Positions 6,559 through 55,257 of a DNA stretch of 64,000 bases are shown here, piece by piece (position 1 is the stretch's first letter; each line of letters opens with the position of its first letter). Source of the stretch: Candidatus Kaiserbacteria bacterium (GTDB lineage Bacteria > Patescibacteriota > Minisyncoccia > Phycocordibacterales > UBA918); assembly GCA_016204695.1 (NCBI GenBank), contig JACQKD010000008.1, positions 33,178 to 97,177 on the forward strand. Reading direction: 5' to 3'. A program made the translations under genes and the position numbers. A model generated the notes under the pieces. The model did not search any database. It was not told where the DNA came from and saw only the letters and a program-made list of their open reading frames with translations.

Positions 6559-7158
6559 ATGGCTCCACAGCACGACACGTCTTCATTTCTCCAGCTCAAT
6601 CTATTGGACTGGGTGGCAAAATTTCTTGACGGACTTTTCGGCAATACCAACGATCCGCAGTCGTTCTACCAGACGGCTTCCGATTGGTGGTACATCTTTT
6701 CCATAGCATCCTTTGCGTTCTCCGCGCTCCTGCTTCTCGGTATTGTCTATTCGATGATTCGTTTTTCCCAGCTTGCCGAAGATGAACAGGGGCTGTTGCG
6801 TGACGCCGAACACGCATACAGGACCGCTCATGCCGCCGCGAGCGACAATACCCAATGGCCGCAGATTCTCGCCCATGTCTCGTCGGACGATCCCAACAAC
6901 TGGCGTCTGGCTATCATCGAGGCGGATATCATGCTCGACGAACTGCTTGACCGCTTGGGCTACCAAGGCGCGTCGATCGGCGACAGGTTGAAGACCGTTG
7001 ACCCCCACTCATTCCATTCGATAGAAGATGCGTGGGAGGCGCATAAAATCCGCAACGCGATCGCGCATCGCGGCTCCGACTTCGTGCTCACCAAACGCGC
7101 CGCGCAGGAAGCGATCGCCCGCTACCAGCACGTCTTCGAAGAATTCAAATTTATATAG
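6559..7158 (+). CDS. hypothetical membrane protein with a C-terminal HEPN-like R-x4-H motif
   Basis: N-terminal TM helix (FSIASFAFSALLLLGIVYSMI). C-terminal helical domain contains HKIRNAIAHRG, i.e. an R-N-x3-H arrangement like the HEPN RNase motif. No close family recognised. Confidence 0.4.
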   Translation: MAPQHDTSSFLQLNLLDWVAKFLDGLFGNTNDPQSFYQTASDWWYIFSIASFAFSALLLLGIVYSMIRFSQLAEDEQGLLRDAEHAYRTAHAAASDNTQWPQILAHVSSDDPNNWRLAIIEADIMLDELLDRLGYQGASIGDRLKTVDPHSFHSIEDAWEAHKIRNAIAHRGSDFVLTKRAAQEAIARYQHVFEEFKFI

Positions 7159-7284
7159 AAACCGTCTAAAAATCCCATCTGCGTTGTTGCGTTCGTCGCT
7201 CGGAATCTCATCGCATGTTTATATATGCCTCGATTCCTCACCCCTCCGCGCCTAGCATCTGGAGCTTTTCAGACTGGTTTCTGG
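7158..7284 (+). repeat. family B MITE-like intergenic repeat, copy 1
   Basis: gaaaccgtctaaaaatcccatctgcgttgttgcg...ccgcgcctagcatctggagcttttcagactggtttc. The two ends are inverted repeats of each other (about 25 nt). Confidence 0.75.
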
Positions 7285-7345: not shown

Positions 7346-7416
7346 AGCGGGGTGGAGGAGAGGTACCTCGGGAGGCTCATAACCTCCAGGCCCGGGTTCG
7401 ATTCCCGGCCCCGCAA
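7346..7416 (+). tRNA. tRNA-Met (anticodon CAU), initiator-like
   Basis: Manual cloverleaf: acceptor agcgggg/ccccgca, U8, D stem gagg/cctc, anticodon stem ggagg/cctcc with loop cuCAUaa, T arm ccggg-ttcgatt-cccgg. The 1:72 position is a mismatch (A:A) and there is an A11:U24 pair; both are hallmarks of bacterial initiator tRNA. CCA is not encoded. Confidence 0.7.
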
Positions 7417-7431
7417 CAAGGGAAAAGAAGC

Positions 7432-7476
7432 AAAATCACAAAGCCCCGGACGTAGTCCGGGGCTTTGTGATTTTGC
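7432..7476 (+). terminator. rho-independent terminator after tRNA-Met
   Basis: About 20-bp perfect stem aaaatcacaaagccccggac / gtccggggctttgtgatttt with loop gta, followed by a T-run. Confidence 0.7.
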
Positions 7477-7482
7477 ATACTC

Positions 7483-17840: not shown

Positions 17841-17927
17841 GGAGGGTTCGCATAGCGGTCGAGTGCGCGACCTTGGAAAGGTCGTATGGGGGAAACCCCA
17901 TCGAGGGTTCGAATCCCTCACCCTCCG
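17841..17927 (+). tRNA. tRNA-Ser (anticodon GGA)
   Basis: Acceptor ggagggt/accctcc with discriminator G, anticodon loop uuGGAaa, long variable arm tatgggggaaaccccatc, T arm gaggg-ttcgaat-ccctc. Confidence 0.8.
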
Positions 17928-18347
17928 CAACAGCAATTTCTGAACGCTTCTGCGTTCTGAAATTGCTGTCCGGCATGGGATGGTCGGGATTCGAAAAGCG
18001 GAAGAAAACAGTCTGGGAGACTGTTTTCTGAGCTGGGGTCGCGAGTCGTTATGAGCGGAGCGAATTACGAACTCGTGACCGAATCCCTCACCCTCCGCAA
18101 AACAAGGAGACAAAGGCGTAGCATTTGGCGACTATGTTTTTGCGAGAGGGTGAGGGATTTGAAGGACGGACTGGAGCGAAGCGGAAGGAGTCGGGGTCGC
18201 GGAATTTTTCTGAGGATACGAAGAAAAATATCCGTGACCGAATCCCTCACCGGCGGCGCGCTGAAGTGATAATCTTTAATATCTGTCGGACGGAATCTGG
18301 CGTGGTATGCTGTCTATAATTAGCAGTATATTCACTTGTGATTCCTC

Positions 18348-21786: not shown

Positions 21787-21803
21787 GCGGTACATTGGGG
21801 AAT

Positions 21804-21850
21804 CGCGACACAAAACGCCTGCCGCTTTGCGGCAGGCGTTTTGTGTCGCC
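21804..21850 (+). terminator. rho-independent terminator
   Basis: About 45-nt palindrome gcgacacaaaacgcctgccgc-tttg-cggcaggcgttttgtgtcgc with U-rich 3' side. A second smaller hairpin plus T6 lies at 21893-21917. Confidence 0.7.
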
Positions 21851-21924
21851 CCCTGCTTGATTGCCGGACTTCTATCTGGTATAGTATGCATGTGATCGCC
21901 CTTCGGGGCGTTTTTTAGAGCGCA

Positions 21925-22342: not shown

Positions 22343-22888
22343 ATGGCAAAACAACTTGGCAACGAAGAACGGCATTGGTATGCGATTCACACGTACTCCG
22401 GCTACGAGAACGCGGTCGCCAGAAACCTGCGCCAGCGCATCGAGTCTCTGGGCATGCAAGACAAGATTTTTGAAGTGGTGGTACCGACCGAGAAGCGGAT
22501 CGTGGTCAAGGGCGGGAAAAGAGTGACGGAAGAGGAACGAATCTATCCCGGGTACGTACTCGTTGACATGATCGTCACCGATGATTCATGGTACGCGGTG
22601 CGCAACACCCCACGAGTGACCGGCTTTGTCGGTAGCGGGACTCAGCCGGTGCCGCTTGATCCGAAAGAGCTCTCCGAGCTCATGAGCCGTATGCAGACCG
22701 ATACCGTCAAGCACAAGATCGACTTTGCGGTCGACGACCAGGTCATCATCACCGACGGTCCCTTCCGAGAGCTTGAAGGCCGGATCGGGGAAGTCGACGA
22801 GAATCGCGGCAAGGTCAAGGTGCTCGTCTCGATGTTCGGCCGCGACACGCCGGTTGAACTCGATTTCTTACAAGTTAAAAAGTCCTAG
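22343..22888 (+). CDS. nusG: transcription termination/antitermination factor NusG
   Basis: NGN domain (WYAIHTYSGYENAVARNL) and C-terminal KOW (DDQVIITDGPFRELEGRIGEVDENRGKVKVLV). ATG at 22343. The stop codon overlaps the start of repeat B2. Confidence 0.85.
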   Translation: MAKQLGNEERHWYAIHTYSGYENAVARNLRQRIESLGMQDKIFEVVVPTEKRIVVKGGKRVTEEERIYPGYVLVDMIVTDDSWYAVRNTPRVTGFVGSGTQPVPLDPKELSELMSRMQTDTVKHKIDFAVDDQVIITDGPFRELEGRIGEVDENRGKVKVLVSMFGRDTPVELDFLQVKKS

Positions 22889-23012
22889 CGTACATCCCAA
22901 AATCTTCATCTGCGTTGTTGCGGGGTCCCCTGCGTCTCGGTCGCCGTATTGTCCATACGTCTTCCTCGCCGCTTTCCCCGCGCCTAGCAGCTGAAAGATT
23001 TTTGGACATACG
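22868..23012 (+). repeat. family B repeat, copy 2 (overlaps the nusG stop codon)
   Basis: aaaaagtcctagcgtacatcccaaaatcttcatctgcgttgttgcgg...gtcgccgtattgtccatacgtcttcctcgccgctttccccgcgcctagcagctgaaagatttttggacatacg. Confidence 0.7.
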
Positions 23013-23047
23013 CTATAGATGATGTATAGTGGGCTGGAAATTCACAT

Positions 23048-23470: not shown

Positions 23471-23481
23471 GAAAAACGATG

Positions 23482-23526
23482 CGCCCGCAATAAAACCGCT
23501 CCTCAAGAGCGGTTTTATTGCGGGCG
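23482..23526. terminator. strong bidirectional terminator hairpin
   Basis: cgcccgcaataaaaccgctc-ctcaa-gagcggttttattgcgggcg: a 20-bp perfect stem flanked by A/T runs on both sides. Confidence 0.7.
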
Positions 23527-23925
23527 TTACCACGGCCAGTATCTTCGCATGGCAGAAAAACTTCCCTCGTTTCTGTCTCCTTCTGTGAGAATGGTATGGA
23601 TCTCTTGGGGCGATAGCAGACCATTGTACAGTTTTCCATTTATATACGTATGATAGTACGGCACTGTCGGCCCGGCCGATATTTTGTAATGGTAGATGCT
23701 GACAGGATTTCCCTTAGATTCTCCGGTCAATATGTTAAATTTCTGATACGAGGCATCGGAGGATCGCCCCATTTCTTTTTTTAGGAAACTGAGGCTCATA
23801 CGCTGTGCATACTTTTTCATCCGATGACGTTTAATTAGGCGTGGTCCGAATGTACAAATAATGATAATGCCTAAAAAGAGCAGTCCTTCGACTGTAGCTG
23901 TAAGTAAAATGTCTATCGGGTACAT
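23527..23925 (-). CDS. hypothetical membrane-anchored protein (low-GC islet)
   Basis: 132 aa with an N-terminal TM helix, no recognisable family, and AT-rich codons unlike the flanking sequence. Confidence 0.35.
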   Translation of the reverse strand: MYPIDILLTATVEGLLFLGIIIICTFGPRLIKRHRMKKYAQRMSLSFLKKEMGRSSDASYQKFNILTGESKGNPVSIYHYKISAGPTVPYYHTYINGKLYNGLLSPQEIHTILTEGDRNEGSFSAMRRYWPW

Positions 23926-34706: not shown

Positions 34707-35834
34707 ATGGACTTCATTGAGCGGCTTTCCGCACGGTATCCGAGTTTGAGGCGTCTGCCCCTGCATCACGTGCAGAAGCATTGGCTCACCATCTCGTTCT
34801 TCTTCGGCGTCATCGTTGATAATCTCACTTTGAGCCGCGTCGATAAGGTGCTCGACAATGTCGCGCTCGCGTCGTACGTCATTCTCGCGATGGCGAGCCT
34901 GCTTATCATGTATGCGGCGACGGCGGGCAAATTGCCGCAAAAGATTCTGGAGAACTATCAACAGTTCGTGCGCGAATGGTCGGAGGTCGCTCTGCAGTTC
35001 GTCTTCGGCAATCTCTTAAGCGGCCTCCTGGTCTTCTATAGCCGGAGCGGTTCGTGGTGGGCGAGCTGGCCGTTTCTCCTTGTCATTCTCGGGGTCATGG
35101 TCGGCAACGAGCGGCTGACGCGCCGGGGGGAGCGTCTGCTCCTCAATCTCGCCATGCTTTTCGTCGGGCTTTTTTCATACGTGGCGCTCATCGTGCCGGT
35201 CGTCATGGGCAAGATGGGGGCATGGATATTTGTGCTCTCCGGAGTGATTGCACTTGTCGTGATGTACGGCTTCGTGCGTCTCTTGGCGCTCGTGGTGCCC
35301 AATTTCATGCGGGCGAATATGCGCATGGTCGCCTTTACGCTCATGCTGGCGTACGTCGTGCTCAATTTTCTCTATTTCACCAACATCATCCCGCCGATTC
35401 CGCTTTCACTCAAAGAGCTCGGCGCGTATCACAATGTCGAGAAGCTTGAGAACGGCAGTTACGCGCTCACCTACGAAAAAGGGAAATGGTACGAGCTGTG
35501 GAAAAATTCCGACACGACGTTTCATTATCAAACCGGCGACATGCTCTACTGCTTTGCATCGGTCTTTGCGCCGACGCGGCTTTCGGTCGAGATATTTCAC
35601 CGCTGGGAATACTATGTGCCGGAAGACCACGAGTGGCGCACGCACAGCCGGCTCTCCTATGGCATCGAGGGCGGCCGCGGCGAGGGCTACCGCGGATACA
35701 GCTGGGTGCGGCATCCGACCCCGGGCACATGGCGCTGTACGGTCGAGACCGACCGCAAGCAGGTGCTCGGCAGTGAGACGTTTGAGGTGGTGGAAGGACA
35801 GGTGCCAATAGGGCTCGTGACAGAGCTACGCTAG
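34707..35834 (+). CDS. hypothetical polytopic membrane protein with a C-terminal soluble beta-rich domain
   Basis: 375 aa, about 7 TM helices, then about 140 aa of hydrophilic Trp/Tyr-rich domain. The stop codon abuts repeat B3. Confidence 0.45.
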   Translation: MDFIERLSARYPSLRRLPLHHVQKHWLTISFFFGVIVDNLTLSRVDKVLDNVALASYVILAMASLLIMYAATAGKLPQKILENYQQFVREWSEVALQFVFGNLLSGLLVFYSRSGSWWASWPFLLVILGVMVGNERLTRRGERLLLNLAMLFVGLFSYVALIVPVVMGKMGAWIFVLSGVIALVVMYGFVRLLALVVPNFMRANMRMVAFTLMLAYVVLNFLYFTNIIPPIPLSLKELGAYHNVEKLENGSYALTYEKGKWYELWKNSDTTFHYQTGDMLYCFASVFAPTRLSVEIFHRWEYYVPEDHEWRTHSRLSYGIEGGRGEGYRGYSWVRHPTPGTWRCTVETDRKQVLGSETFEVVEGQVPIGLVTELR

Positions 35835-35968
35835 AAACCGCCTAAAAAGTCCATCTGCGTTGTTGCGGAGCCTCTGCGTCTCGGTCGCCGTATTATTCAT
35901 ACGTCTTCCTCACCGCTTTCTCCGCGCCCAGCATCTGGAGCTTTTAAGACGGTTTCTGATTTTGCTTT
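35834..35968 (+). repeat. family B repeat, copy 3
   Basis: gaaaccgcctaaaaagtccatctgcgttgttgcggagcctctgcgtctcggtcgccgtattattcatacgtcttcctcaccgctttctccgcgcccagcatctggagcttttaagacggtttctg. Confidence 0.75.
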
Positions 35969-53409: not shown

Positions 53410-53426
53410 AGGTCGAGGAAGATACG

Positions 53427-53460
53427 AAAACAGGCGCGGCGAAAGCCGCGCCTGTTTTTA
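53427..53460 (+). terminator. rho-independent terminator after rpsR
   Basis: aaaacaggcgcggc-gaaa-gccgcgcctgtttt, then ta. Confidence 0.7.
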
Positions 53461-53484
53461 GATTCTCAATCCGGTTCTTTCAAT

Positions 53485-54060
53485 CTAACTCTTCGATATG
53501 CGCTCGGTATATTCGTCAGTCTCGGTATTGATGCGGATGACGTCGCCTTGATTGATGAACATGGGGACCATGATCGTGGCGCCGGTTTCGAGCACAACTT
53601 CCTTTGTGGCGCCCTGGGCGGTGTTGCCCTTGGTCGCAGGGTCGGCTTCCGTGACCATAAGCTCCATCTTGATCGGTAGTGTTACGCCGATAATCTCGTC
53701 ATTGTAGACGATTGCGGTCACTTCGCTTTTCGGCTTCAAATACTTGCCGGCGGGGCCGACGAGATCTTCGGCAAGAGAAAATCGTTTTGACGGGTCGTCC
53801 GGTTCGCAGAAAAAGTACTCGCCGCGGTTTCCGTAGAGGAAGGTGATGGGGCGGTCGGAGATATCCGCTTCCCGCACGCTCTCATTCTGATGAAATGTCT
53901 GCTCGATGAATTTGCCCGATTTCAGGCCCTTGAGCTTTGTCTGATTGACCGGTTTGCGCTGTTGTTTGCGGAAGACGTGCGCGGACACCACGACAAAAGG
54001 TTCGTCATTGTGGATAATAACTTTCTTCGGGAGTATTTCGTTGTATGCGAGCATGGCCAT
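53485..54060 (-). CDS. efp: elongation factor P
   Basis: 191 aa with three OB-like domains and the KxGKG-type loop region (LKSGKF...). Confidence 0.85.
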   Translation of the reverse strand: MAMLAYNEILPKKVIIHNDEPFVVVSAHVFRKQQRKPVNQTKLKGLKSGKFIEQTFHQNESVREADISDRPITFLYGNRGEYFFCEPDDPSKRFSLAEDLVGPAGKYLKPKSEVTAIVYNDEIIGVTLPIKMELMVTEADPATKGNTAQGATKEVVLETGATIMVPMFINQGDVIRINTETDEYTERISKS

Positions 54061-54099
54061 GGGAATATTTTTACACAGAAAGACACACTATCACATTCC

Positions 54100-54192
54100 G
54101 CTGAAAATCGCGATCCGCGTTGTTGCGGAGCCTTGGTCGCCGTATTATTCATGCGTCTTCCGCGCCTAGCGGCCCATCGGTTTTCATCGGGG
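54100..54192 (+). repeat. family B repeat, copy 4 (shorter)
   Basis: gctgaaaatcgcgatccgcgttgttgcggagccttggtcgccgtattattcatgcgtcttccgcgcctagcggcccatcggttttcatcgg: the core is conserved and the ends are again mutually complementary. Confidence 0.65.
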
Positions 54193-54201
54193 GTGTCGCC
54201 G

Positions 54202-55257
54202 CTACTCTTTTTTCAGCTCTACTCGGATTTCTTTCAAAAGTTGGTCGCCGACTTTCTTGTTCTCGCGGAGATAGGTGCGCGCGGCATCGTATCCGCGGCC
54301 GAGTTTGTGTTCGCCGTAGTTGTAGGACGATCCTGATTTGCCGACCAACTTGAATTTTTCGCCGAGTGCGAGGAGCTCGCCTTCGCGGCTGATGCCTTCG
54401 TTGTAGATGAGGTCAAACTCGGTGGATTGGAATGGCGCGGCGACTTTGTTTTTTACCACTTTCACGCGGTGCCGCCCGCCGACCACCTCATCGCCTTTTT
54501 TGATCTGCGCGATGCGACGGATGTCGAGACGCACCGATGTGTAAAATTTGAGCGCCTTGCCGCCCGGCGTGGTCTCGGGATTGCCGAACATCACGCCGAT
54601 CTGCATGCGGATCTGATTGATGAAAATAACGACTGTCTTTGTTTTGGATACGATCGCCGTGAGCTTGCGTAACGCTTGCGACATAAGCCGCGCCTGCTTG
54701 CCGACATGGTGCGCGCCCATTTCGCCTTCGATTTCGTCTTTCGGGGTAAGCGCGGCGACCGAGTCGATGACGACGACATCGACCTTGCCCGATCGCACGA
54801 GTGACTCGACGATTTCAAGCGCCTGCTCGCCGGTGTCCGGCTGTGAGATCAAAAGTTCCTCGATTTTCACTCCGATTTTTTTCGCGTATTCCGGGTCGAG
54901 CGCATGCTCGGCGTCGATAAACGCGCAGATGCCTCCGGCGCGCTGGGCCTCCGCGATCACGTGGAGGGTGAGCGTGGTTTTCCCCGACGCTTCCGGTCCG
55001 AATATCTCGATGACGCGCCCGCGGGGAAGTCCGCCGATGCCGAGTGCGTCATCAAGACCGATCGAACCGGTAGGGATCGCATCGACGTCCACCTTCTGCT
55101 GATCGCCGAGCATCATCATTGCTTCGTCGCCGAATTTCGTCTTGATGCTCCGCAGGGTTTCCGCGATGTCCGCGATACTGCGTCTCGGTTCAGAGACACC
55201 CTCTGCATTCGCAACAACGGGGTCTTTTGGTTTCGGCATGGTTTTTTTCGGTGCCAT
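54202..55257 (-). CDS. recA: recombinase RecA
   Basis: Walker [11 protein letters not shown], the L1/L2 loop regions, and high similarity throughout. Confidence 0.95.

Follow-up and report, generated by a model that had tools for sequence, protein, structure and literature searches.

A variety of short, gene-less palindromic repeats have been described in bacteria, and the repeat analyzed here, designated Family B, works most like two of these groups, REP/REPIN and the elements derived from IS200/IS605, yet it fails their defining features. Family B is present as four full copies, all on the + strand, and one 3′ fragment in a 64,000-nucleotide (nt) stretch of a Candidatus Kaiserbacteria bacterium (assembly GCA_016204695.1, contig JACQKD010000008.1, positions 33,178 to 97,177), which we refer to as the window and number from its first base. 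From the comparisons described below we tentatively favor the explanation that Family B is a gene-less, non-autonomous mobile hairpin that would be mobilized in trans, as a single strand, by an enzyme reading its loop.

REPs are 20–40 nt long, with a GTAG or GTGG head located 0–2 nt 5′ of the stem and a bulge of at most 1–3 nt (PMC6006769). Like Family B, they are short, gene-less intergenic palindromes present in many copies, and they occur both as singlets and as inverted doublets, the latter comparable to the proteobacterial composite described below. REPs are recognized as folded single strands, and the gene for their RAYT transposase (TnpA-REP, of the HUH Y1 type) is single-copy elsewhere in the genome, usually with the repeats on its flanks; no Y1 (RAYT) gene was seen in the 64 kb of the window or in the 8-kb loci of the other genomes, which are the parts of these genomes that were covered. 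Family B differs in its length (95–170 nt), in having a 6+5 nt loop plus further internal loops, and in a core that is identical across phyla, whereas REP sequences are lineage-specific. A GTAG/GTGG (or CGTC) head is conserved on neither strand, the arms starting with TAGAAACC, TAGCGTAC, CAGGCTG, AGAGG and other sequences.

[quoted passage not shown] Family B resembles them in strand-specific hairpin recognition, in the lack of an open reading frame (orf), and in the insertion of one subfamily directly 3′ of TAA/TAG/TGA with no duplication. This CAGGCTGCTG subfamily is metagenomic and has CAG...CTG ends; TAA, TAG or TGA lies directly 5′ in eight of ten cases, the 3′ flank is arbitrary, and no duplication is visible. 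Family B is, however, a single hairpin, a replication bias is undetected, and some copies are TA-flanked on both sides.

The Correia elements and other bacterial MITEs of the IS630/Tc1 type share with Family B a size of 100–160 bp, inverted-repeat ends, a TA site, the lack of an internal transposase, proximity to genes, and a capacity to provide promoter components. Those elements are restricted to a genus and have conserved ends, whereas the ends of Family B vary and its center is invariant across phyla; the strand-asymmetric G·U/G·A pattern of Family B is foreign to such MITEs. Integron attC sites are also imperfect hairpins with an unpaired spacer between two helices, one functional strand, conservation of structure over sequence, and a position 3′ of genes, but Family B lacks the R″/R′ AAC...GTT arrangement, cassettes and IntI, its neighbors are housekeeping genes, and its loop is conserved whereas that of attC is variable. 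The arrays of TIGR-Tas systems, with guide units of ~36 nt beside a Tas gene, bear no apparent resemblance to the Family B repeats. The hairpin repeats of organelles (double-hairpin elements and repetitive hairpin-forming elements; PMC2800124) are likewise small, non-coding and mobile with no known enzyme, and some are double; they belong to eukaryotic organelles and show neither a sequence relation to Family B nor a loop motif shared across hosts.

Copies in the window and their insertion sites

Each full copy is an imperfect palindrome of 95–130 nt in the window, with no orf inside it. The layout on the + strand is a 5′ arm, ..ATCT GC GTTGTT GCGG, a variable interior, CCGC GCCTA GC AKCT.., and a complementary 3′ arm, and the core has 11+11 nt (5′-GC GUUGUU GCGG...CCGC GCCUA GC-3′). 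In the folded form a variable outer stem of 20–55 bp is followed by a G-C/C-G clamp, an asymmetric internal loop of 6+5 nt in which GUUGUU (5′) faces GCCUA (3′), a GCGG/CCGC helix, and a variable apical domain; on the reverse strand the two sides of the loop are UAGGC and AACAAC. Strings taken from the core are clearly over-represented, with five matches in the window to a 16-mer (0.71 expected) and three to a 27-mer (0 expected). A covariance model of the family recovers these four copies and no others in the window, each of them on the + strand, with scores of 83 (copy 1), 82 (copy 2), 93 (copy 3) and 51 bits (copy 4); the next matches score no higher than 19 bits and represent plain hairpins, matched on both strands.

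An initial annotation of the sequence had reported four full copies, first placed at 7158, 22868, 35834 and 54100, together with a right-end fragment, and had described all of them as sharing one orientation. All five are present and are indeed co-oriented, on the + strand, with limits refined to 7156–7283, 22886–23014, 35832–35960, 54098–54193, and ~1248–1290; the position at which copy 2 was first taken to start lies 18 nt inside nusG. The minus strand is the best-folding polarity of each full copy. Copy 1 (128 nt) consists of a 5′ arm (7156–7180), the 5′ core GCGTTGTTGCG (7181–7191), an apical domain of the divergent type D2 (7192–7245), the 3′ core CCGCGCCTAGC (7246–7256) and a 3′ arm (7257–7283), and its sequence is the same in two further assemblies of this organism. 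Copy 2, located between nusG and rplK, has A2-type arms and a D1-type apical domain; the TAG stop of nusG (22886–22888) opens its 5′ arm, and its cores are at 22912–22922 and 22978–22988. Copy 3 lies between a DUF2914 gene and argS, with a TAG stop (35832–35834) opening the 5′ arm, the 5′ core at 35857–35867 and the 3′ core CCGCGCCCAGC at 35922–35932, and combines A1-type arms, like those of copy 1, with a D1-type apical domain, like that of copy 2.

Copy 4 is a short form of 96 nt with A3-type arms (cores at 54117–54127 and 54160–54170), the apical domain of which is without one helical segment on both sides; its neighbors are recA (54202–55257) and efp (53485–54060), both on the − strand. 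The solo 3′ half-copy (CCTcGCATCTGGAGCTTTTCAGAaaGGTTTtaagg; ~1248–1290, no folding polarity assigned) begins within the 3′ core and has A1-type arm sequence, and neither core-string nor model searches of the window revealed a 5′ core partner for it. As first described, the two termini of a copy are complementary to each other and their sequences vary from copy to copy, with the exception that copies 1 and 3 share the same arms.

Comparison with the orthologous loci of relatives, a check suggested by the initial annotation, reveals empty sites at all three loci that are testable. The NusG encoded in the window is 100% identical to an NCBI cluster named for Candidatus Kaiserbacteria. Relatives with NusG proteins that are 94, 92 and 86% identical have the same gene order as the window. 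The nusG-rplK spacer is 159 nt in the window and 22–25 nt in the relatives' loci L122, L123 and L125, and the DUF2914-argS spacer is 155 nt in the window and 37 nt in L122, the only relative measured; the element is also absent from the DUF2914-argS junction of L123 and L124. L122 has no element after the 199-amino acid (aa) gene at the site orthologous to that of copy 1, and no core string is present in the 20-kb syntenic loci of the relatives. At each of the three loci the end of the protein coincides with the orthologous residue, the stop codon being where the insertion starts. Since the sites in relatives are empty, the element is mobile, and these three window copies are MITE-like insertions. 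The earlier view that the copies reflect more than simple MITE decay thus holds insofar as decay of terminal inverted repeats (TIRs) alone is excluded, but a reading of the copies as not a MITE is wrong. It is only the generic definition of a MITE that applies to Family B: small, non-coding, multi-copy, and insertion-polymorphic between relatives.

The TAG stops that open copies 1, 2 and 3 belong to the 199-aa orf, nusG and the DUF2914 gene, respectively, all on the + strand. The overlap with the nusG stop noted earlier is therefore real but is one of three; copy 4 lies between − strand genes, in the opposite sense to its neighbors. The first bases of the element rebuild the stop codon, TA and the initial G together giving TAG, and in 24 of 59 cases across the family 20–25 nt separate the end of a gene's stop codon on the given strand from the 5′ core that follows. 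Copies 1 and 3 are flanked by TA..TG, without a second TA. Reconstruction of the empty site of a composite element at locus L090 gives GGCTAGCC and brings back two convergent stop codons that overlap. A pre-existing palindrome was considered as the insertion target and rejected, as the empty sites do not contain the arms; automated detection of element ends was too noisy to reveal target duplications.

A promoter-like site is present at one insertion (23003–23030), where the 3′ arm of copy 2 provides TGGACA 16 nt upstream of a native, conserved TATAGT before rplK. The two hexamers match at 10 of 12 positions, and the empty sites of the relatives are without this arrangement.

Stem covariation, core conservation and strand asymmetry

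Two alignments were used, one of 33 diverse copies checked by hand and one of 115 copies that is model-based. Among the 115 copies, pairing holds in 80.9% of stem cells, compared with 54.1% in shuffled alignments and 30–44% when the partner columns are slid; 713 cells are changed on both sides against 262 expected, and none of 500 shuffles is as high. The covariation score of 0.52, against 0.12, is likewise reached by none of 500 shuffles. Both alignments have strong covariation in the outer stem and in the helix above the loop. The stem evolves freely provided that pairing stays, and the initial annotation was right to propose that it is under selection.

The ends of the element are its most variable part and the center is the conserved part. 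About 14 copies found independently, with the model or by a mismatch-tolerant search, still have [G/U]C-GUYGUU-GCG and CGC-GCCUN-G[C/A], and in three lineages the G-C clamp has changed to U-A on both sides. The unpaired core is conserved far beyond what is expected from neutral decay.

The two strands are not equivalent in their ability to fold. The non-Watson-Crick stem cells, read on the given strand in a fixed model register, comprise 167 C·A/A·C, 239 C·U/U·C, 27 G·U/U·G and 27 G·A/A·G. The mismatch lean of the model-aligned elements favors the reverse strand in 87 and the given strand in seven, and the reverse complement is more stable in 88 of 105 elements, with a mean gain of 8 kcal/mol; the same bias in energy is seen with the outer stems alone and with the interiors alone. 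The − and + strand folding energies are −48.4 and −38.0 kcal/mol for copy 1, −55.5 and −49.1 kcal/mol for copy 2, and −55.1 and −46.4 kcal/mol for copy 3. Tandem G·A lies beside the clamp on the reverse strand in the common ATCT lineages, and nearly all independent lineages with the single-hairpin type show the bias.

Because almost all stem mismatches are C·A or C·U on the + strand, and hence G·U or G·A when the other strand is read, it is the reverse strand that folds, which argues against an RNA acting in the sense 3′ untranslated region (UTR). A preserved fold of this kind is the hallmark of a single-stranded molecule that has a defined polarity, whether RNA or single-stranded DNA (ssDNA). 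Mutation bias was rejected as the main cause of the asymmetry, as orientation is tied neither to GC skew nor to transcription; deamination of the coding or leading strand would be expected to give the opposite sign.

Distribution among bacteria and variant forms

One genome per species was scanned with the pattern GCGTTGTTGCG-N30-60-CCGCGCCYAGC, which yielded at least 119 loci; chance matches inside coding sequence, mostly of the CCCAGC form, were set aside. Among the matches listed, more than 100 species of about ten phyla carry the 11+11 nt core, and several genomes are represented by more than one contig. Carriers are found in the Patescibacteria (Kaiserbacteria and Saccharibacteria), Dormibacterota, Clostridia, Negativicutes (Phascolarctobacterium), Elusimicrobia (Endomicrobium), Verrucomicrobia, Planctomycetota, Nitrospirota, Bacteroidota (a Chitinophaga metagenome-assembled genome, MAG) and many Alpha-, Beta- and Gammaproteobacteria. 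Cultured carriers include Phascolarctobacterium succinatutens YIT 12067, Polaromonas sp. P2-4, Aquipseudomonas alcaligenes RU36E, Comamonas kerstersii CCUG 15333 and Ramlibacter cellulosilyticus USB13, and the rhizobial form occurs on one plasmid only, in Agrobacterium sp. MA01. The conservation of the core sequence across about ten phyla points to a widespread machine that would read the element.

A viral contig collection contained no copy. The Rfam search that had been suggested matched no family: in Rfam 15 there was no match at the gathering score for the window or for 18 loci of other phyla, and none at E≤10 for a 200-nt slice with one copy. Literature searches by sequence strings returned primers only and those by description no matching element; coverage was incomplete, so that this is no proof of novelty. 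One copy (L042, 5635–5771) is on a contig binned as the archaeon Candidatus Nitrosopolaris and is almost identical to the Dormibacterota form; it probably reflects a binning error rather than archaeal occurrence.

A comparison of the window copies shows that they are mosaic. Copies 1 and 3 are 88/87% identical in their arms and 60% identical in their interiors, whereas copies 2 and 3 are 65/58% identical in their arms and 87% identical in their interiors. Arm type and apical-domain type assort independently (compare 7192–7245, 35868–35921 and 22923–22977) and the switch points are the core; arms and apical domains have been exchanged between copies at the core. Partial copies also break within the core, as in the window fragment, a truncated last unit in Phascolarctobacterium, and a duplicated 3′ half at locus L065.

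Several variant forms are seen in other genomes. A tandem array of the Phascolarctobacterium type (L046, 5544–6005; also L005, L025 and L096) has four 107-nt units and a truncated fifth ending in GCGTTG; it sits between an MgtC-family gene and the next gene, and its two middle units have CCGCCCTGGC in place of CCGCGCCTAGC. The composite of Beta- and Gammaproteobacteria (L090, 7650–7920; L066, 2770–3040) has an outer inverted repeat enclosing a reverse-core hairpin, a CCC-NNN-GGG mini hairpin and a forward-core hairpin, such that both strands carry one hairpin of each polarity; it has TA flanks, and that of L090 is placed exactly between two convergent TAG stops. Arms in the Dormibacterota are up to ~54 nt long, and their outer 16–25 nt, although paired inside each copy, vary from one copy to the next, also among those of a single MAG. 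Two metagenome contigs keep the 5′ core and outer arms: at L148 (~500–650) the interior is replaced and there is no 3′ core, and at L130 (1060–1270) there is a nested extra segment in the interior.

Proposed mobilization and neighboring features

In the single-strand explanation that we favor, the element would have moved as a hairpin of minus polarity, either ssDNA or complementary DNA (cDNA). The mobilizing enzyme would be encoded elsewhere in the genome and would recognize the invariant loop and its two flanking helices, with cutting or joining probably at the loop or at the stem foot, following a logic like that of REP/REPIN-RAYT, the IS200/IS605 ‘peel and paste’ elements, or attC hairpins. 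The arms would be a mere structural scaffold, which would explain their covariation. A structure serving a recombinase-like enzyme had been one of the initial proposals, and it is compatible with the data and in the direction that we prefer, although no such enzyme was found in the window or the neighboring loci. We regard as possible, but on balance doubtful, the stronger proposition that the reverse-strand loop and helices are the recognition and cleavage site of a phylum-spanning enzyme system that moves or copies gene-less single-stranded hairpins and places them at stop codons, and that would be a new class and not a derivative of a catalogued IS. There is a real chance that the underlying mobilization system is new.

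No recurring protein family specific to Family B was found within ±2.5 kb of ~100 copies, where the orf clusters reflect read-through of the repeat together with ABC ATPase, GGDEF and response regulator genes. The ~38 window orfs compared with Pfam are housekeeping genes or have no assignment, with no transposase, recombinase or reverse transcriptase among them. At locus L116 two cores 3.5 kb apart enclose orfs that, judged by eye from their translations, are aldolase-, MBL-fold-, GNAT- and oxidoreductase-like; this pair was considered as a candidate autonomous copy and rejected, only ordinary genes being enclosed.

A number of observations weigh against single-strand mobilization. With no candidate enzyme among the window orfs or within ±2.5 kb of ~100 copies, the trans-acting step is one that we infer. 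Copy 2 and the copies at L090, L066, L023 and L028 have TA on both flanks, which is a mark of double-stranded cut-and-paste of the IS630/Tc1 type and not of HUH elements. The well-folding strand of the single-hairpin type is antisense to the abutting gene in 26 cases and sense in 11, and a replication-linked orientation bias of the kind expected for IS608-like elements is not significant (27 vs 19, by GC skew). The strand-asymmetry counts include related copies (~25 from Dormibacterota), the effective sample thus being smaller than 115, and the genome search demanded the exact 22-nt core, so that invariance in the copies it found is by construction and the apparent invariance is inflated.

The alternative that survives best, although we consider it unlikely, is a double-stranded MITE moved by a DDE transposase of the IS630/Tc1-mariner type, with a duplicated TA (preferably CTAG) target, a center that is cargo or an internal binding site, and a palindrome that represents long TIRs. 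The doubly TA-flanked copies would fit such a MITE, as would the initial G that rebuilds TAG from TA, the size of 95–170 bp without an orf, and the insertion polymorphism; the proteobacterial copies, with two inverted core units inside an outer inverted repeat, are arranged like two transposon ends. Yet the ends, which are the expected target of the transposase, vary most and the center is invariant across phyla; copies 1 and 3 and the CAGGCTGCTG subfamily are without a second TA; the G·U/G·A strand asymmetry serves nothing in a double-stranded mechanism; and no transposase lies near any copy examined. Conserved TIRs matching an autonomous IS were not found, the termini being the least conserved part, and there is no autonomous partner at any locus.

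It is improbable that Family B is a cis-acting RNA of mRNA 3′ ends (a processing site, stabilizer, terminator or translation-termination signal) that was spread by transposition and kept as useful. Such a role would suit the placement against stop codons, including the 20–25 nt spacing to the 5′ core in 24 of 59 cases, the sense orientation within operons of three of the four window copies, and hairpins that are more stable than shuffles (z of −3.3 to −6.1), and the conserved asymmetric internal loop is presumably comparable to RNase III or protein-binding sites. The mRNA strand, however, is the one bearing the C·A/C·U mismatches, and the well-formed fold is antisense; orientation to the flanking genes is mixed across genomes, with 20 (+,+) and 14 (−,−) cases overall. 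Rfam has no match even at E≤10, close relatives do without the element, and terminator scans around three copies, for a G+C-rich stem with a loop of 3–8 nt and an immediately following T-run, do not call it; copy 2 lies in the nusG-rplK operon with no T-run after it. The initial suggestion of an RNA hairpin in 3′ UTRs is accordingly not supported.

A retro-element without its own reverse transcriptase, in which co-transcribed copies would be converted by a host reverse transcriptase to a minus-polarity cDNA hairpin and then integrated, seems to us quite improbable. It would reconcile the sense orientation after genes (26 vs 11) with a fold on the reverse strand, and the shuffling of modules at conserved blocks resembles copy-choice template switching. 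Against this, there is no reverse transcriptase in the window or beside any copy examined and no poly-A or other mark of retro-insertion, the orientation bias is small and disappears in the low-GC subset, and the scheme is inferential at every step. It is very improbable that Family B is a folded single-strand site for a tyrosine recombinase, like integron attC or the attP hairpin of CTX phage, for while the hairpin has two helices around an unpaired center, only one strand folds well, exchange and breakpoints map to the core, and Phascolarctobacterium has a tandem array, the RYYYAAC (5′)/GTTRRRY (3′) arrangement is absent (GTT is 5′, and there is no AAC/GTT foot pair), no cassettes or integrase are nearby, and the copies lie in one orientation among essential genes, a placement that would make attC×attC recombination lethal. 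Compared by eye, motifs of the K-turn, loop-E, GNRA-receptor, S8-site and boxA kinds do not fit.

If Family B does move as a single-stranded hairpin read by its loop, one small structured module would have spread over at least ten phyla of bacteria, among them the Patescibacteria with their reduced genomes. The retention of 22 unpaired or clamp bases between freely evolving stems would imply a conserved and as yet unnamed trans-acting partner, which could add a new insertion activity for DNA (or cDNA), guided by structure and directed to a very short target, either a stop codon or TA. As the element rebuilds stop codons, splits operons such as nusG-rplK and can supply promoter parts, it would bear on annotation and expression in many MAGs; it would also be a ready marker of strain-level insertion polymorphism, and the cultured carrier strains would make direct tests possible.

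Near-perfect palindromic hairpins that give weak matches to the model on both strands are located at 7428–7478, 17924–17975, 21802–21852, 23476–23532 and 53419–53466. These directly follow tRNA-Met, tRNA-Ser, rplK and other genes, and that at 7430–7476 combines a 20-bp stem with a T-rich tail; none belongs to the family, and a role as bidirectional terminators is probable. In L122 (~2180–2300) the orthologue of the tRNA-Met gene at 7346–7417 is split just after the CTC of the anticodon loop by an inserted segment longer than 100 nt, which the window lacks and which looks like an intron.

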